The position numbers were made by a program, and so were the translations under genes. This document shows positions 2,642 to 31,922 of a stretch of DNA of 32,000 nt, in pieces. The first letter of the stretch is position 1; the number at the start of each line of letters is the position of its first letter. The DNA lies in the NCBI GenBank assembly GCA_963676515.1, contig OY781061.1, positions 505,520 to 537,519 on the forward strand. The letters run 5' to 3'. A model generated the notes under the pieces. The model did not search any database. It saw nothing but the letters and a program-made list of their open reading frames with translations, and had not been told where the DNA came from. Origin of the DNA: Candidatus Cloacimonadota bacterium. Lineage in GTDB: Bacteria > Cloacimonadota > Cloacimonadia > G963667145.

Positions 2642-3796
2642 TTAAAAAGAGTATTCCGCTTTACACCACGCCATGGAGTTATCGGAAAATTTACCAAAAT
2701 TGCCTTGCTGGTCGCCGTCGTAATAGTCGTAACCTAGCAAAATGTGCAGCCCTTGACTGCAATCGTAGTCGCCACTAAATTTACAAAAAATATCTTGCCG
2801 AGCAAGGCTATTCACCGCTTGAGCAGTAAATTCTAACTGCTGACGAAAAACTTTCTTCTTGAGCGTGAGGGTCAGCAAGCTCTCCGACTCATCCCTTTGC
2901 ACATCGACAGAGTAGTCGCAAACCAAATCGGCTGTTAGCTGAGCTGTAATAGTCCAGTCGTTCCCCGGATAGCAGTCTATCCCCAGCAATCCATCCAGCC
3001 ACGGCTTCTCTACCGTTCCTCCAGCAAAAAACTTCCGCTGGTAATAAGCAGACTCCAGACGATACACAAAAGAGCCTTGTGCTGCGGAAGCTTCCACGCC
3101 TACATAGCCAGTTCGCTTGTAGTCTATCACCAAGTCACCTGCCGAGAAACTTTGCACAGGCAACCAGAAATAGTAGCCACTCACTGCAAAATCAACCGCT
3201 CCCAAGTTTTTACCCAACCTGCCTGCTATTTGGGCAGATTCTAGCGTCTTCTCGGGCAAATCGTGCTCCACACCCTTATAACCAATAACATTCCACAAAG
3301 AGTCCGCCAATGGGTACTCTGCTCTGGTCATGTACGGCAGATAGATGATGTCGAGGTCAAAATAATCGGGAGAGTAGCTGAACTTGCATGCATCCACCGC
3401 TAGGCGACTGTCTTGCAAATCTTGGCTGAGTCCCAGCGAAAAGTCTTGCGAGCAGATAATGTCCGTGATACGCAGTCCGTCGGCTTTCCCCCAAGCGATG
3501 ATCTGGCGACCAATCCTCACATCCCAAGAGTCGGCAAAGTAATCGAAATAAGCTTCCTTGAGTTCAAAACTGCTCTGGTCTGTATTATTATCACGCATCG
3601 CCTTCAAGCTAGAAAAGAAGTAGGTGCTTTGCTTGTCTTGGCTCAGTTCCAGCAAAAGCCAGTTCTTATCCAGCAAACTTTGCTGCTCGCCTTGACTCTG
3701 CCAGCCGTGATGCGAAGCAACTTTACCTGCCACATCTAGGGCAAAAATTTGCCAGCAAAAAAAAGTGAGCATTAATAGAAAAAGTTTTTTCATCAA
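2642..3796 (-). CDS. Outer-membrane beta-barrel protein (DUF1302-like)
   Basis: 384 aa. Signal peptide MMKKLFLLMLTFFCWQIFA, the motif RIGRQIIAWGKADGLRITD typical of DUF1302-type barrels, alternating hydrophobic pattern, and a C-terminal aromatic end ...KAEYSF. Its start overlaps the upstream gene's stop (ATGA). Confidence 0.65.
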   Translation of the reverse strand: MMKKLFLLMLTFFCWQIFALDVAGKVASHHGWQSQGEQQSLLDKNWLLLELSQDKQSTYFFSSLKAMRDNNTDQSSFELKEAYFDYFADSWDVRIGRQIIAWGKADGLRITDIICSQDFSLGLSQDLQDSRLAVDACKFSYSPDYFDLDIIYLPYMTRAEYPLADSLWNVIGYKGVEHDLPEKTLESAQIAGRLGKNLGAVDFAVSGYYFWLPVQSFSAGDLVIDYKRTGYVGVEASAAQGSFVYRLESAYYQRKFFAGGTVEKPWLDGLLGIDCYPGNDWTITAQLTADLVCDYSVDVQRDESESLLTLTLKKKVFRQQLEFTAQAVNSLARQDIFCKFSGDYDCSQGLHILLGYDYYDGDQQGNFGKFSDNSMAWCKAEYSF

Positions 3797-4557
3797 AACT
3801 TACCTCTTTTAAGATTTGCAACTTTGAAAATTCTATCAGACACCTCTTGGTTATATTTCACCGATTGTATTTCCAGCAATGTCGTGTGTTTCTCCTGCTC
3901 ATTGTCCATAAAGCGAGAAAACGCTGTCCAGATACCGTCGATTTTTTGGAAATTACTGGCTGTCATCCTCTTCAAAAATCTACCTCTTTTATCGTAAAAC
4001 TCACCTTTTACCACCAGCAAATAATCTTTACTCACCCACTTCACCACTTTGGAGTACTGGTACCCTTCCTCTTTGGGAGTAGACTCCACCACCCAGCAAT
4101 CCGTGTCAGCAAACTTCTCCTCTTGCAGAAGTTTATGCGTATCTTCCTCTGGCTCTCTTTGTCCCATATCGTCATAGGTAAAATCTGTCCCCATAAAGTA
4201 GTCGCTCGTGCTAGAAGAAGCTATCCGCCTTACTTTCCGCAATGCTGGCATATATAGCCATTTGTCGTCATCTTTCGTAGCGTCATCGTACGACCAGTTC
4301 AAAAAAGCTGTCCCCGCAACATCGGCAGGTTGCAAAAACACAAACAGCGATTTCTCATCTTGCCCAAAATCTTTACGAATCATCTTCGTCTGCCTCTCCC
4401 TTGTTCTGCCTTGTCTATTGGTCAGCACCATCTTACTTTCGGAAACCATCGTCTTCCCATCGTCTCTTGCGTCCACTTGCTCCATTATCTCCAATCCCGT
4501 GATCGAAAACAGGCTACTCCCAACCGCTAAAACTATAAATACAAATAAACTTCTCAT
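3793..4557 (-). CDS. LolA-like outer-membrane lipoprotein-sorting family protein
   Basis: 254 aa with a signal peptide. The motif WLYMPALRKVRRIASSSTSDYFMGTDFTYDDM matches the conserved core of the LolA_like family, which usually sits next to DUF1302 proteins and RND exporters. Confidence 0.75.
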   Translation of the reverse strand: MRSLFVFIVLAVGSSLFSITGLEIMEQVDARDDGKTMVSESKMVLTNRQGRTRERQTKMIRKDFGQDEKSLFVFLQPADVAGTAFLNWSYDDATKDDDKWLYMPALRKVRRIASSSTSDYFMGTDFTYDDMGQREPEEDTHKLLQEEKFADTDCWVVESTPKEEGYQYSKVVKWVSKDYLLVVKGEFYDKRGRFLKRMTASNFQKIDGIWTAFSRFMDNEQEKHTTLLEIQSVKYNQEVSDRIFKVANLKRGKF

Positions 4558-4581
4558 TTTAAAACCGCCTTTAAATATTTT

Positions 4582-4608
4582 TGAACACTGTTTACTGAAC
4601 AGCGTTCA
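4582..4608. promoter_or_regulatory. Imperfect palindrome TGAACACTGTT-N5-AACAGCGTTCA, 25 nt upstream of the LolA-like start; candidate operator or 5' UTR hairpin
   Basis: The arms match 10 of 11 as reverse complements, read directly from the sequence. The site lies immediately upstream of the first gene of the minus-strand exporter operon. Confidence 0.35.
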
Positions 4609-4613
4609 TTGTC

Positions 4614-4640
4614 AAGGAGCAAAATGTTTTTTTGCTCCTT
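4614..4640. other. Strong 11 bp hairpin AAGGAGCAAAA-tgttt-TTTTGCTCCTT at the left edge of the noncoding region
   Basis: Perfect inverted repeat read from the sequence. Neither strand has a clean downstream U-tract, so a role as an intrinsic terminator is uncertain. Confidence 0.4.
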
Positions 4641-4799
4641 TCGCTTGCAACGACCAGACTGTCGCCCTTGGCTAGACGGTTTCGTCTTCTGTCAGATGAC
4701 TGGTTTACTAAATTTTCTCTCCTGACGGATGGTCTTACTTTTCCCTTTGGCTGACCAAAGCGAAAAGTAACAAAAGGTAAAATCAAAATACCAAATCAG

Positions 4800-5990
4800 T
4801 AAGCTAAATTCTAAACCTTCTTTACACGCTGAAAGGCTTGTGCTAGAAATCACAACTGTTTAATAGAGGTGATATAGCACATCGCTCTTCAGCGTAAACT
4901 CAGGGCGGCTAACGAATTTAACGCTTCCTGCTTTATGTATTTATTAGCCCAACCCTTCCTTGGGTTCCCGCTTCCGCGGGAATCCATTCTCTCACACTAT
5001 GCTAAAAACTACCACCAGACACTGTTTCCACTCAGCACGAGCTTTTTGTAGCCACCACCTGCCACAAGAAACCACCCAATAAAAACTTTAAGCAACTAGC
5101 ATACAATTACTTACGCCTTGCGGAGCTACGCTGGCGGCGACGAGCTATATCACCAAAAAGTGACAGATGTGATTCATAGCTCAAGACTGACAGCGTGCGA
5201 GGCGAGGCTTAGTAATTTTGCTAGGAGCTTAGGTTTTTTGACTTTTTCTTTCCTTCTACTTCTTTTTGGTCTGTCAAAAAGAAATAGAAAACCCTGCGTT
5301 AGCAGAGCCAACTAAATAAATAACCGACAGTGTCCGAAATAAAGTATGGCAGTCAATTAATTAACACATATACACTCCCAAGCTGGAGCTTGGGAGCGAG
5401 AAAAAACGCCAACCCATCCTTGGATTCCCGCTTCCGCGGGAATGAGGCGGATAAGGTGACTAAAGGGTTGGGTGATAACTCAAAGCCTGTGGTAAGCAGA
5501 GTCAGTGCTGGTGGATACTCAAAACTGGCAGTGGACGAAAGCAAACGCTTGTGAAGACACATAATTGTCTGTGGCACACGCCCGAGAGCTTCGCTGGCGT
5601 CGAGAGAGAATGCTGAGTAAGTCATTCAAGCCGAGGTTCGTAAACTTGTTTAAACGAATGAGCTAGTGGCTGTGCGACTTGGCTTAGGTCTCTTCTTTAG
5701 GCTGGCTTTAAAAGACTTTAAGCCTGAGTTACAGCCACCGTGAAGGTAGTTTTGCAAGTTAGAATCGAGGTTTATGACTTTGATTTTTTTTTGGCATTAC
5801 CTTTCTTTTTTATCACTAAAAGAAGAAAGGTAACATCCTGTGATAGCAAAAGTTAACGCCTTTCCAGCATCGTGTCAATGAATGGATTCCCGCTTCCGCT
5901 CAGGATGAGGATGGTGGTAACTCAAGACTGGTGGTAAATAGAAGCAAGGGCTAGTGGACAGTTTTCACCACAAGTGGCAAAGCCTAATTG
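4800..5990. repeat. Three degenerate tandem modules (period about 460 bp) of a hairpin-rich noncoding element
   Basis: The core TTCCCGC-TTCC-GCGGGAA recurs at 4965-4982 and 5425-5442, with a decayed copy at 5887-5900. The flanks are shared: AACCC(T/A)TCCTTGG upstream; GAGCT(A/T)CGCTGGCG at 5124 and 5586; A(C/T)CCTG(C/T)G(T/A)TAGCA at 5291 and 5835; GGTG(A/G)TAACTCAA at 5471 and 5913. There is no credible ORF. Confidence 0.65.
5409..5471. repeat. Best-preserved copy of the nested hairpin core
   Basis: Three nested stems can be drawn. These are CCAACCC (5409-5415) with GGGTTGG (5465-5471), ATCC with GGAT, and ATTCCCGC with GCGGGAAT closed by a TTCC loop. Confidence 0.55.
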
Positions 5991-6025
5991 AAAAGATAAA
6001 ATTATTGTCACACATAGTAAAAATG

Positions 6026-6062
6026 AATAAAAAAAGCCGCCCTTTGTTTAAAAAAGGACGGC
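6026..6062 (-). terminator. Rho-independent terminator of the permease gene
   Basis: On the minus strand, GCCGTCC - 13 nt loop - GGGCGGC is followed by TTTTTTTATT. It lies 24 nt downstream of the permease stop. Confidence 0.75.
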
Positions 6063-6085
6063 TCAATTACAAATCTAAATAAGTA

Positions 6086-7372
6086 TTACATGAAGAACTT
6101 GCCGATGAAAATCAAGGCAACGATGTAAGTAACAACACTAACTTCTTTAGCTCTACCTGAGCAAAGTTTCAATGCTGTGTAAGAGATGATACCAAAAGCA
6201 ATACCCTCAGAGATAGAGTAAGTAAGTGGCATGATAATCATAGCCAAGAAAGCTGGAAGACCTTCGGTAAAATCTGCGAAATCCACTTTCAAAATCGGAG
6301 TAAGCATAAAAAGACCCACAACGATAAGAACAGGAGCTGTAGCAGCACCAGGCACCATTGTAATCAGTGGAGAGATGAAAAGAGAAAGCAAGAACAGACC
6401 AGAGATAACCAAAGCGGTAAGACCAGTACGACCACCCTCTTCTACACCAGCGGCTGACTCTACATAAGTAGTAACAGTACAAGTTCCAAGTAGTGCACCA
6501 ACTGTAGTACCTACAGCATCAGCAAAGAGAGCTTTCTTCACGCCTGGCAATTTGCCATCAGAATCAAGCATATTAGCTTTAGAAGCCACACCAACCAAAG
6601 TACCCACTGTATCAAACATATCTACGAACAAGAATGTGAACAACACGGTAGCCATATCAAGACTAAAAACATTGCTAAAATCAAGTTTGAAAAAGATAGG
6701 AGCAAGGCTAGCAGGAGCAGAGAAAATGCCATTAAATTTGGCAGCACCCAAAATAAGAGCCAAAACAGTAGAAGAAAGAATCCCTATCATCAAAGCACCT
6801 TTGACTTTTTTGTGATGCAATACGCCAATCACCAAAACACCAAACACGCAGATCAAAGGGTTGACTGAAAGCATATCTCCCAGTCCCAGCAATACAGCAG
6901 GATTGTCAACGACAATAGAAGCTCCTTGCAAACCGATGAAAGCGATGAAAAGCCCGATACCAGCAGAGATAGCGTATTTCAAGTTAATCGGAATACTATT
7001 GACAATCGCCTCACGCACATTGAGGAAAGTCAAGATCAAGAAGATCACACCTTCCAAAAAAACTGCTGTAAGAGCAAACTCCCAAGAGTAACCCATACCC
7101 AAAACCACTGTAAAAGCAAAAAAGGCGTTCAGCCCCATACCTGGTGCAAGACCAAAAGGCATGTTTGCATACAAAGCCATCACCAAAGTAGCTATAGCCG
7201 AAGACAAAGCTGTCGCAGTGATAAGCGCCCCAAAAGGCATACCTGTTTTTGACAAGATAATGGGATTCACAATAAGGATGTAACCCATAGTCAAAAAAGT
7301 GGTGATACCAGCAAGGATTTCTGTTTTTACAGTCGTTCCATGCTCACTAAGTTTAAAGAATTTTTCGAACAT
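6086..7372 (-). CDS. NCS2/AzgA-family purine (adenine/guanine/hypoxanthine) permease
   Basis: MFEKFFKLSEHGTTVKTEILAGITTFLTMGYILIVNPIILS... is the characteristic N-terminus of AzgA/PbuG-type permeases, followed by about 12 TM helices. I moved the start to the ATG at 7372 because AGGAGG lies 4 nt upstream. The ORF-track start at 7408 has no RBS. Confidence 0.85.
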   Translation of the reverse strand: MFEKFFKLSEHGTTVKTEILAGITTFLTMGYILIVNPIILSKTGMPFGALITATALSSAIATLVMALYANMPFGLAPGMGLNAFFAFTVVLGMGYSWEFALTAVFLEGVIFLILTFLNVREAIVNSIPINLKYAISAGIGLFIAFIGLQGASIVVDNPAVLLGLGDMLSVNPLICVFGVLVIGVLHHKKVKGALMIGILSSTVLALILGAAKFNGIFSAPASLAPIFFKLDFSNVFSLDMATVLFTFLFVDMFDTVGTLVGVASKANMLDSDGKLPGVKKALFADAVGTTVGALLGTCTVTTYVESAAGVEEGGRTGLTALVISGLFLLSLFISPLITMVPGAATAPVLIVVGLFMLTPILKVDFADFTEGLPAFLAMIIMPLTYSISEGIAFGIISYTALKLCSGRAKEVSVVTYIVALIFIGKFFM

Positions 7373-7509
7373 TCTTCCTCCTAAATATATAAAGTTTCCC
7401 CAAAACAAAAAGGAGCAAGTTTCAAGTCAAGATTTTTCTTTATTTTCTTGACTCATTACAAGCACTAAACGAATTAAGTAACAATAAAATTTAACTCAAG
7501 GAGAAAATT

Positions 7510-29428: not shown

Positions 29429-30280
29429 ATGAAAAAAGAAAAATCAATGATTGTCTTCAACCAAAAAGAGGTTCGTCGTCATTGGGATAACGAAAATGAA
29501 CTTTGGTACTTTTCTGTTATCGATATTATTGAGATTCTCACGGAAAGTCCTCGACCAAGAAAGTATTGGAACGCTCTAAAAACAAAGTTATTAAAAGAAG
29601 GGAGTCAGTTGTCCCACGATATGGGACAACTGAAAATGAAATCTTCTGATGGGAAATTTTATGAAACAGATGTTTTGGACACGAAGAACATTTTAAGGCT
29701 TGTGCAATCTATTCCATCTCCCAAAGCAGAACCTTTTAAAGTTTGGCTAGCGAAAGTCGGATACGAAAGAATCGAAGAAACTGAAGATCCAGAGCTTGCT
29801 TTTGATAGGGCAATGCAAACTTATCTCAAAAAAGGTTATTCAAAAAACTGGATAAACCAAAGACTCAAAAGTATTGAAGTGAGAAAAGAGCTTACTGATG
29901 AATGGAAAGAAAGAGGGATGGAAGAAGGGTTAGATTATGCGATTTTGACGGATGAAATCACAAAAGCTTGGACAGGAAAATCGGTAAAAGAGTACAAAAA
30001 TTTCAAAGGTCTCAAAAAGCAAAACTTGCGAGATAATATGACCAATCTTGAGCTTGTTTTAAATATGTTAGCAGAAGCATCTACTTCTGAAATTTCAAAA
30101 GAACAAAATCCCAAAGGGCTAAGTGCAAATAAAAAGGTAGCAAAGGAAGGCGGGAATGTTGCCAAGCAAGCAAGGATAACATTAGAGAAGCAGACAAGAA
30201 AAAGTATTATTTCTCCTAAAAATGCTGCCGAATTACAAAAACAAAACAACCTTTTAGAAGAAGACAAGCAAGCAGAATAA
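29429..30280 (+). CDS. Bro-N domain / DinD-like (DNA-damage-inducible protein D family) protein, copy 1
   Basis: 283 aa. The N-terminal segment FNQKEVRRHWDNENELWYFSVIDIIEIL has the Bro-N pattern. The C-terminal part (KGLKKQNLRDNMTNLELVLNMLAEASTSEI...) parallels E. coli DinD (KGLKKNQKILDHMGSTELAANLFRATQTEE), from memory. Confidence 0.7.
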   Translation: MKKEKSMIVFNQKEVRRHWDNENELWYFSVIDIIEILTESPRPRKYWNALKTKLLKEGSQLSHDMGQLKMKSSDGKFYETDVLDTKNILRLVQSIPSPKAEPFKVWLAKVGYERIEETEDPELAFDRAMQTYLKKGYSKNWINQRLKSIEVRKELTDEWKERGMEEGLDYAILTDEITKAWTGKSVKEYKNFKGLKKQNLRDNMTNLELVLNMLAEASTSEISKEQNPKGLSANKKVAKEGGNVAKQARITLEKQTRKSIISPKNAAELQKQNNLLEEDKQAE

Positions 30281-30282
30281 TT

Positions 30283-30537
30283 TTAATGCTTAATTAACCC
30301 GTCCAGCTCTGCCAGAATCTCCCTGACTATCTTCTGGGTCGCCCCTGCGTGGCTCTGGACGAAATCGGCACAAGCTTTCCGCTGAGAGGCAAACTTTTCC
30401 CTATCGCTCAAGAAATCCCCTAGTAGCTTTTCCGCCTGCTGAGTATCGCTAAAAACCGTAGCTCCTCCCGCCAACACCAGCTGTTCCGCCTCGTGCGAGC
30501 TGTGGAATTTGTCACCAAACTTTCTGTCATCGGTTTT
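30283..30537 (-). pseudogene. 3' remnant of a Kdo transferase (kdtA/waaA)-like gene, copy 1
   Basis: The frame is open for 84 codons with no ATG. The translation is ...FGDKFHSSHEAEQLVLAGGATVFSDTQQAEKLLGDFLSDREKFASQRKACADFVQSHAGATQKIVREIL. It resembles the WaaA C-terminus (GPHTFNF...L...G....V.D...L...V..LL.D......G..A...V..N.GA). It is cut off exactly at the leader-repeat junction. Its GC content is visibly higher than its neighbours. Confidence 0.5.
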
Positions 30538-30615
30538 TTAGAGAACTTGAACACAACAAAACTCTTGACGAAATTGAGGAGATAAAAAATATTCTGTGAA
30601 AATTTCCTGCTATGT
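30526..30615 (+). repeat. Leader repeat copy 2
   Basis: See copy 1. TTGACG lies at 30565-30570 and AATATT at 30588-30593. Confidence 0.7.
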
Positions 30616-30697
30616 TAATCGCTTCTTTGCTTGTCAAAAAAAATAGTCACTAAAAACAAAATGCTTTGTTTTTAAAAATTAATTTTATCTAAAAACT

Positions 30698-31549
30698 ATG
30701 AAAAAAGAAAAATCAATGATTGTCTTCAACCAAAAAGAGGTTCGTCGTCATTGGGATAACGAAAATGAACTTTGGTACTTTTCTGTTATCGATATTATTG
30801 AGATTCTCACGGAAAGTCCTCGACCAAGAAAGTATTGGAACGCTCTAAAAACAAAGTTATTAAAAGAAGGGAGTCAGTTGTCCCACGATATGGGACAACT
30901 GAAAATGAAATCTTCTGATGGGAAATTTTATGAAACAGATGTTTTGGACACGAAGAACATTTTAAGGCTTGTGCAATCTATTCCATCTCCCAAAGCAGAA
31001 CCTTTTAAAGTTTGGCTAGCGAAAGTCGGATACGAAAGAATCGAAGAAACTGAAGATCCAGAGCTTTCTTTTGATAGGGCAATGCAAACTTATCTCAAAA
31101 AGGGTTATTCAAAAAACTGGATAAACCAAAGGCTCAAAAGTATTGAAGTGAGAAAAGAGCTTACTGATGAATGGAAAGAAAGAGGGCTGGAAAAGAGTTT
31201 AGATTATGCAATTTTGACGGATGAAATCACAAAAGCTTGGACTGGTAAATCGGTAAAAGAGTACAAGAATTTCAAAGGTCTCAAAAAGCAAAATTTGCGA
31301 GATAATATGACCAATCTTGAGCTTGTTTTAAATATGTTAGCAGAAGCATCTACTTCTGAAATTTCAAAAGAACAAAATCCCAAAGGGCTAAATGCAAATA
31401 AAAAAGTAGCAAAAGAAGGTGGTAATGTTGCCAAGCAAGCAAGGATAACATTAGAAAAGCAAACAAGAAAAAGTGTTGTTTCTCCTAAAAATGCTGCCGA
31501 TTTGCAAAAACAAAAAAACCTTTTAGAAGAAGATAAACAAGAAAAATAA
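30698..31549 (+). CDS. Bro-N domain / DinD-like protein, copy 2
   Basis: 283 aa, about 96 percent identical to copy 1. Differences include A124S, MEEG to LEKS and S232N, and most cluster in the last 30 residues. Confidence 0.7.
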   Translation: MKKEKSMIVFNQKEVRRHWDNENELWYFSVIDIIEILTESPRPRKYWNALKTKLLKEGSQLSHDMGQLKMKSSDGKFYETDVLDTKNILRLVQSIPSPKAEPFKVWLAKVGYERIEETEDPELSFDRAMQTYLKKGYSKNWINQRLKSIEVRKELTDEWKERGLEKSLDYAILTDEITKAWTGKSVKEYKNFKGLKKQNLRDNMTNLELVLNMLAEASTSEISKEQNPKGLNANKKVAKEGGNVAKQARITLEKQTRKSVVSPKNAADLQKQKNLLEEDKQEK

Positions 31550-31562
31550 TTTCAACACTTAA

Positions 31563-31805
31563 TTAGCCCTCCAGCTCTGCCAGAATCTCCCTGACTATCT
31601 TCTGGGTCGCCCCTGCGTGGCTCTGGACGAAATCGGCACAAGCTTTCCGCTGAGAGACAAACTTTTCCCTATCGCTCAAGAACTCCCCGAGGAGCTTTTC
31701 CGCCTGCTGAGTATCGCTAAGAACCGTAGCTCCTCCCGCCAACACCAGCTGTTCCGCCTCGTGCGAGCTGTGGAATTTGTCACCAAACTTTCTGTCATCG
31801 GTTTT
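31563..31805 (-). pseudogene. 3' remnant of a kdtA/waaA-like gene, copy 2
   Basis: Same truncated frame as 30283-30537, with a few substitutions and a different last 5 codons. It is cut at the same junction. Confidence 0.5.
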
Positions 31806-31883
31806 TTAGAGAACTTGAACACAACAAAACTCTTGACGAAATTGAAGAGATGAAAAACAATCTGTAAAAATTTCCTGCTATGT
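31794..31883 (+). repeat. Leader repeat copy 3 (diverged), here preceding radC
   Basis: Alignable to copies 1 and 2 up to ...CCTGCTATGT, after which the sequences differ. TTGACG lies at 31833-31838. Confidence 0.65.
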
Positions 31884-31922
31884 AAGTAAGTAAGCTAAAA
31901 ACTTTATTTTAAGTATAAAATT

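Follow-up and report, generated by a model that had tools for sequence, protein, structure and literature searches.

What fills the 1.5 kb between two genes at positions 4558-6085 of the stretch of a Candidatus Cloacimonadota genome analysed here (32,000 nucleotides, hereafter the window, the positions of which serve as coordinates throughout)? On the left the gap begins at the start of a LolA_like gene (3793-4557, minus strand), and on the right it ends at the end of a gene for a xanthine/uracil-type permease (Xan_ur_permease, 6086-7408, minus strand). A first-pass annotation, made from the letters alone, had described three decayed, hairpin-rich modules of ~460 bp and had offered three explanations, i.e. 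tandem genes for a structured RNA, a decayed array of a nonautonomous mobile element, or a long structured leader of the neighbouring exporter operon. We compared the gap with its own genome (G000, one contig of 1.58 Mb with a GC content of 41.8%) and with five sister genomes of the same genus (G001 to G005). In our estimate, with a probability of roughly 80%, the gap holds a mosaic of non-coding DNA repeats that bear hairpins and are dispersed through the genome, a mosaic similar to the NIMEs of Neisseria and to Ssn-related motifs (SRMs) and located at an intergenic hotspot. Of the three earlier explanations the mobile element comes closest, as the repeats are dispersed, non-coding and hairpin-bearing, but they are not one 460 bp module present three times.

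The gap is real, and its general description holds. Its GC content of 0.39-0.46 is ordinary compared to 0.418 genome-wide, and its five open reading frames (ORFs) are short (53-90 amino acids) and free of motifs, with no Pfam match even at E <= 1. The spacers elsewhere in the window had been given as 0-275 bp, which is roughly true, although a crude tiling with ORFs also yields gaps of 909, 759 (a tRNA cluster) and 417 bp.

Comparison of the window with the corresponding G004 and G005 loci by blastn shows that the region between 4617 and 6020, here called the island, is an insertion. Homology with four sister genomes reaches 4615/4616 on the left, and 4633 in G005. In G004 the two flanking genes are ~200 bp apart; homology with the window extends to 4616 and is found again from 6021, at the permease terminator, and the spacer between these two points is only ~70 bp long and holds no counterpart of the island. 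The terminator itself, an intrinsic terminator identified by a terminator scan (6034-6064, minus strand), lies outside the island at its right boundary, and its conservation extends to G004 and G005. Between the two genes G005 carries 7 kb of DNA in which hsdS, hsdM and an IS3-family transposase (orfA/orfB) are located, with two of the repeat units of the island, B and D, at the borders. With ~70 bp in one relative and 7 kb in the other, the island represents an insertion in a variable hotspot. In G005 (C1:599400-607000) the restriction-modification genes are of type I, with hsdS and hsdM and no evident hsdR.

The inserted DNA consists largely of repeats. A blastn search of the gap against its own genome, one of the checks proposed with the first-pass annotation, returned 191 matches, and ~77% of the island (~1077 of 1404 bases) is present in multiple copies. 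Phage and plasmid collections, searched by blastn, gave no match. For the commonest piece, unit A, a profile with a consensus of 278 nt has 69 matches in G000 in both orientations, three of them in the island (two A copies and a weak match that is unit B, described below). Unit A is non-coding, with stops in every frame and no third-position periodicity, and its copies overlap with long open frames by 12% compared to 92% for the genome. The single-copy filler amounts to ~340 bp in total and is made up of U1 (4617-4712), F (5448-5615) and U2 (5941-6020). The island is put together from this filler and from five or more types of unit, unrelated to each other or distantly related, that occur in both orientations.

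From left to right, U1 is followed by the first copy of unit A (4714-4983, plus strand), which comprises ~270 nt of non-coding DNA and matches the A profile with an nhmmer E value of 1e-80. It contains an internal hairpin (4735-4770; folding z score -4.2) and ends in hairpin H1 (GTTCCCGCTTCCGCGGGAAT, 4964-4983), which is one base off the dRS3 pattern described below and folds as DNA with -11 kcal/mol (z -5.2). A low-copy linker E (4987-5072), with two or more copies in the genome, leads to the second copy of unit A (5073-5310, minus strand; nhmmer E 7.5e-55, model positions 4-239). This copy belongs to another subfamily, has lost its terminal hairpin and harbours an internal hairpin (5254-5289) and the first GAGCTACGCTGGCG box at 5123; it is 67% identical to copy 1 and lies on the opposite strand. 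Unit C (5330-5408), also found in G003 and G004, carries the hairpin CTCCCAAGC-TGGA-GCTTGGGAG at 5375-5396 (z -5.0), of which the genome has nine exact copies compared to 0 in the control. The adjoining hairpin unit H2 (5409-5447, minus strand) has the arrangement CCTC-ATTCCCGCGGAAGCGGGAAT-CCAAGG, with an exact dRS3 repeat at 5424-5443 and its CCTC tag (GAGG on the plus strand) at 5444-5447; it folds with z -3.5, and 57 near-full-length copies of this 39 nt unit are found genome-wide. The single-copy filler F, for which there is no second copy in G000 and no match listed in the five sister genomes, contains the first GGTGATAACTCAA box at 5471 and the second GAGCTTCGCTGGCG box at 5586. Unit B (5616-5850, minus strand) is a distant relative of A, as seen from a weak nhmmer match to the A profile (5639-5850, minus strand, E 1.7e-4). 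It has an internal hairpin at 5797-5833 (z -5.2), about six copies in G000 and copies in all five sister genomes. Unit D (5859-5940, minus strand) comprises the decayed hairpin H3 (5886-5906), a GAGG tag at 5907-5910 and the second GGTGGTAACTCAA box at 5913, and on its 3' side the H1 flank is repeated in inverted orientation; the single-copy U2 completes the island.

The hairpins link the island to a known family of palindromes. H2 is an exact ATTCCC-N8-GGGAAT, i.e. the dRS3 inverted repeat ATTCCCNNNNNNNNGGGAAT, which is defined in Neisseria as a 20 bp inverted repeat of this form (PMC1797815; PMC11893778). G000 contains 49 exact copies of ATTCCC-N8-GGGAAT compared to 0 in a reversed-genome control. 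With a relaxed pattern ~100 copies are obtained; an initial count of 150 included 49 matches within a CRISPR array (C1:1137508-1140917), which were excluded. The array consists of ~50 repeats GTTCATCCCCGCTTGTGCGGGGAAC with a period of 61 bp, the stem of which resembles the dRS3 hairpin.

When 84 copies are oriented by their flanks, the consensus CCTCATTCCCGCGAAAGCGGGAATCCAT is obtained, and the oriented hairpin CCTCATTCCCGCGRAAGCGGGAATCCA matches 26 of the 28 positions of the Neisseria Transformation Sequence (NTS) CGTCATTCCCGCGMAVGCGGGAATCYRG, the target of the single-stranded DNA nuclease SsnA (PMC11893778). The G000 consensus retains the NTS-type palindrome ATTCCCGCG-loop-GCGGGAAT together with the C that immediately follows it on the 3' side; no other base matters as much for binding by SsnA (Chenal et al. 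2025, PMC11893778). On the 5' side the hairpins carry the tag CCTC, which is limited to this genus among 61 Cloacimonadota genomes sampled; other genera of the phylum have TGTC- or CGTC-tagged copies (YGTC), up to 200 per genome.

Genome-wide, neighbouring hairpins whose tags point outward enclose a body, in most cases unit A, and lie at a distance of 249-551 bp, and complete A units are bracketed by inverted hairpins. Hairpins arranged back to back are separated by linkers of 51-207 bp, and those in the island are ~440-460 bp apart. Tagged hairpins show no replichore bias (43 vs 40). All three island hairpins had been reported as one recurring landmark. The first two indeed fold (z -5.2 and -3.5), but in the third the right arm is disrupted, and no fold is obtained (z +1.25). 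H2 is the sole intact oriented copy in the island; H3 is tagged but has a broken stem. H1 is chimeric: it lacks a CCTC tag and has a flank of the 'CCA' (3') type at either end, which an exchange inside the palindrome would produce.

A close parallel to this organization is provided by the NIMEs, arrays in which dRS3 hairpins separate RS elements (Bentley et al. 2007, PMC1797815). There the dRS3 copies flank many families of repeat units of ~50-150 bp (19-214 bp), again in arrays, and the arrays occupy syntenic positions with variable content between related Neisseria genomes (PMC1797815). The Cloacimonadota repeats share the same 20 bp palindrome ATTCCC-N8-GGGAAT, the syntenic arrays that differ in content (the site studied here is vacant in G004 and filled differently in G005), and the occurrence of insertion sequences and cassettes within arrays; their hairpins, too, bracket repeat units and form arrays, in which they appear to alternate with many families of non-coding filler units. 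Of six A loci examined in sister genomes, three flank the same genes as islands of G000, two of them with different arrangements, and the syntenic islands in G004 and G005 differ in content. They differ in the phylum, and in the size of the filler bodies, which measure 250-310 bp here compared to 19-214 bp in Neisseria, with the wider hairpin spacing of the island given above. In addition, no filamentous-phage or Piv-type (IS110-like) recombinase was found in G000. As the name NIME is bound to the genus Neisseria, we call the island NIME-like.

A second parallel is that of the NTS and SRM hairpins with the nuclease SsnA (Chenal et al. 2025, PMC11893778), in which the cognate Ssn binds and cuts the motif as single-stranded DNA and on one strand only. 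An Ssn-type gene is present in two sister species. G005 encodes a 94-amino-acid, single-domain GIY-YIG protein, the gene of which lies between two inverted hairpins that carry the CCTC tag on their outer side, an arrangement like NTS-ssnA-NTS; SsnA of N. meningitidis also has 94 amino acids (PMC11893778). Copies of a similar gene are located among the same CCTC-tagged hairpins in G002. The G005 protein has more than 1300 relatives of 90-100 amino acids with 60-70% identity in very different phyla. At 80 loci of such relatives in named genomes (55-67% identity), a strict SRM is present within 700 bp in 37, compared to 0 in the reversed control, and on both sides in 14, typically right at the gene borders. 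These canonical SRMs reproduce the published association of Ssn proteins with SRMs, which places the sister-species gene in that operational family. G000 itself has 55-100 hairpins but no ssn gene. A GIY-YIG search of this genome yields a single match, a 598-codon open frame that is presumably uvrC, and tblastn with the Ssn-type protein of G005 detects no remnant in G000. The layout of complete A units is that of the hairpin-ssn-hairpin cassette without the gene.

Two further candidates for ssn cassettes were discarded. When the A profile was compared by nhmmer with the ssn cassettes, unit A was found to share only the hairpin end with them, so that it is not a recognisable decayed ssn gene. 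The GIY-YIG ORFs of 84 amino acids in G001 and G003 are located inside 23S rRNA genes (L040/L038, about 1450-1760), where they form an insertion of the intervening-sequence type in an apparent 23S rRNA gene. Separately, G003 encodes a 127-amino-acid protein with a weak GIY-YIG match (L042 607-990, L043 381-767) that adjoins the unit C hairpin CTCCCAAGC-TGGA-GCTTGGGAG and also a GTTCCCAAG...CTTGGGAAT hairpin; this may be a second pairing of a nuclease with a hairpin.

Two other classes of repeats resemble the island in part. Like the REP/BIME elements with their RAYT proteins (E. coli, REPINs of Pseudomonas), the hairpins are short intergenic palindromes in mosaics with other motifs, and their structure is kept by compensatory change. 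In contrast to them, they are of the dRS3 and not the REP type, and the family search of G000 gave no match to a Y1 transposase (RAYT / IS200-IS605, PF01797). With MITEs such as the Correia elements of Neisseria the units have in common that they are non-coding, a few hundred bp long, present in tens of copies, bounded, where complete, by inverted termini and confined to a narrow lineage. They differ in that no target-site duplication or parent insertion sequence was identified, and in that the units are modular and recombining and not uniform.

Taken together, the repeats would have accumulated in a 'safe' intergenic site between the terminator of the permease gene and the promoter or operator of the LolA-like exporter operon. 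The punctuation mark of the island is the 20 bp palindrome of the dRS3/NTS/SRM family, to which, in its single-stranded form, the small GIY-YIG nuclease Ssn binds in other bacteria (PMC11893778), and the larger blocks A, B and C are lineage-specific filler units placed, when complete, between two hairpins with outward tags. Spreading and shuffling of the units could have proceeded by recombination or by single-strand DNA processing at the hairpins, and an Ssn-type enzyme was probably supplied in an ancestor or in trans. In G000 the island would by now be inert, a relic that serves at most as a substrate in recombination and in the turnover of cassettes, and it is probably not a functional part of either neighbouring gene.

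Several observations weigh against this interpretation. About 340 bp of the island (U1, F and U2) are single-copy and are not accounted for by repeats. The tag in G000 is CCTC and not the (H)GTC of the published SRM pattern HGTCWY..., and in Neisseria it is the three bases upstream of the palindrome that matter most for cleavage (PMC11893778). The strict published pattern is accordingly not enriched in G000 (3 matches vs 2 in the control): it misses the G000 hairpins because they carry CCTC in place of (C/T)GTC. No enzyme able to move or cut the repeats is detectable in G000 at present, the searches for Ssn-type, Y1 and IS110-type proteins having been negative. Neither a target-site duplication, looked for at the island borders by comparison with G004, nor a parent element of the classical MITE kind was seen at the locus. 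Finally, a search of sequencing runs for island DNA found no RNA run, which leaves room for an RNA role of unit A. Three runs are listed, with their type unrecorded and present as assembled contigs; the island occurs in two samples of one study, and the short-read contigs break at the repeats.

The alternative that units A and B encode a structured small RNA in multiple copies, with the island as a cluster of such genes, is unlikely. Selection for hairpin formation is evident from the internal hairpin of A and B, in which 7 of 16 pairs show double (compensatory) changes between subfamilies, and in which 88% of the cells pair compared to 78 +/- 1% in shuffled alignments (none of 500 shuffles reaches 88%). 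Such changes, like the good folding of the local hairpins, are what an RNA gene would require, but they do not distinguish DNA from RNA and are equally expected of elements acting as single-stranded DNA. Most A copies also run in the direction of replication, and hence in that of the majority of genes (35 vs 16, p 0.011; 17 vs 7 when counted by cluster), which may be a mere consequence of gene orientation.

Other properties of unit A argue against an RNA gene. The consensus fold of 40 copies by RNAalifold is weak on both strands (-8.7 and -16.2 kcal/mol over 278 columns), and no family of Rfam 15 matches. A cmscan of the whole window at the gathering score finds only three tRNAs outside the gap, and at E <= 10 the region 4400-6250 shows only chance-level, terminator-like matches in the gap. 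Copies are recurrently truncated at the module borders (model positions 47, 152 and 262), and in some of them the internal hairpin module is replaced by another hairpin. The two island copies are moreover inverted to each other. The distribution is patchy even within the genus, with many copies of ~90% identity in G000 and G004, few copies of 75% identity in G005 and a fragment in G001. Three of five same-genus genomes thus yielded unit A, whereas searches of G002, G003 and another 35 genomes from the class were negative. The earlier proposal of tandem structured RNA genes is therefore not sustained by the Rfam searches, the alignment fold or the distribution.

Two observations concern unit A and its genome more generally. 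The largest non-coding repeat array of G000 is an ORF-free region of 4.2 kb at C1:894-898 kb (L011 3165-7352), composed of six units of ~660-750 bp, each with an A copy and all in one orientation. The GC skew of G000 is very strong (about +/-0.15-0.25) and places the origin near 820 kb and the terminus near 45 kb.

It is also quite unlikely that the island is the remnant of a cassette, such as the restriction-modification and IS3 block of G005, from which the genes were deleted while the repeat borders and some unique DNA stayed behind. The occupation of the same site in G005 by hsdS, hsdM and an IS3 transposase, with units B and D at the borders, and the single-copy share of the island are what this would lead one to expect. 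For the single-copy pieces, however, none of the listed ORFs matched a Pfam family, phages and plasmids contained no matching DNA, and outside the repeats nothing matched the G005 cassette. Such an origin is compatible with a NIME-like repeat mosaic and is no substitute for it.

That one module of ~460 bp was triplicated locally long ago and has since decayed is very unlikely, even though all landmarks on which this reading was built were recovered. The hairpin core TTCCCGCTTCCGC is found at 4965, 5425 and 5887 (spacing 460 and 462), the GAGCT(A/T)CGCTGGCG box at 5123 and 5586 (within one base of the position first given), the GGTGRTAACTCAA box at 5471 and 5913, the CTCCCAAGC...GCTTGGGAG hairpin one base from its earlier position and the TTACCTTTCTT... 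hairpin at 5797-5833. The recurrence at 460-464 bp and the GGTGRTAACTCAA box, which occurs nowhere else in the genome than at these two places, speak for a triplication. Module 1 (4949-5408) and module 2 (5409-5870) share 53% global identity, slightly above shuffled sequences (49.3 +/- 1.2%). Tandem Repeats Finder nevertheless detects no array, and what the two modules have in common is limited to one short box and the hairpin unit of 35 nt. Within the gap the highest similarity is found between inverted and not tandem segments (4560-4948 vs 4949-5408, z 39), and the blocks are 85-95% identical to copies elsewhere in the genome but only ~50% to the neighbouring module. Module 2 consists of a different unit (B) and unique DNA. 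Module 1, i.e. the block H1-E-A2-C (4964-5408), in which A2 is the second copy of unit A, is itself a composite and is found at three further loci (C1:945985, 1436335 and 1308782) with 85-94% identity, which explains why a '460 bp module' looked like a unit.

The least probable reading is that the island serves the LolA-like / DUF1302-like / MMPL exporter operon as a long structured leader or as a regulatory region at its 5' end, as its position directly upstream and its wealth of hairpins might suggest. The sister genomes contradict this: G004 has the same operon and upstream palindrome with ~200 bp between the two genes, so that the operon does not need the island, and what four sister genomes conserve upstream of the LolA-like gene ends at 4616.

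Within the NIME-like reading, the origin of the complete A units is open to a more specific and tentative proposal. These units (CCTC-hairpin, non-coding body of ~250 bp, inverted CCTC-hairpin) could be gene-less, non-autonomous derivatives of hairpin-ssn-hairpin cassettes, mobilised in trans by a nuclease of the Ssn type; we regard this as a possibility that is less likely to be right than wrong. If it were true, the genus-specific CCTC tag would reflect co-evolution with the cut-site preference of the nuclease, the units would provide direct genomic evidence of Ssn cassettes as mobile elements with MITE-like offspring, and a lineage could lose the enzyme yet keep the debris.

The new points are modest, i.e. 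the genus-specific CCTC tag, the large gene-less cassette-like units and a genome that keeps the hairpins without the nuclease. The NIME-like reading strikes a candidate 'large novel RNA' off the list and accounts for a conspicuous non-coding island of 1.5 kb. It also extends hairpin mosaics of the NIME/SRM type to a small-genome lineage of Cloacimonadota, and documents a tag variant that the published SRM search pattern misses. The contrast within one genus between species with an Ssn-type gene and species with hairpins only could be used for testing the effect of Ssn on its repeats, and the intergenic site is flagged as a hotspot where restriction-modification and insertion sequence genes come and go.

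Outside the island, at its left boundary, lies a near-perfect conserved palindrome, TGAACACTGTT-N5-AACAG(C/T)GTTCA with N5 = TACTG (4583-4609; z -3.3). It is located ~25 bp upstream of the start of the LolA-like / DUF1302-like / MMPL operon, in a region conserved in four sister genomes, and judged by its sequence it is a candidate operator/promoter region of the LolA-like gene. Directly at the left edge of the island there is a perfect 11 bp stem, AAGGAGCAAAA-N5-TTTTGCTCCTT (4614-4640), with no T-run on either strand; it is partly common to G005 and absent from G004. At the other end of the window, positions 29429-31898 comprise a tandem duplication with a unit of ~1.27 kb, in which two ORFs of 283 amino acids (29429-30280 and 30698-31549) are each followed by a segment of ~320 bp that is 96% identical between the copies.

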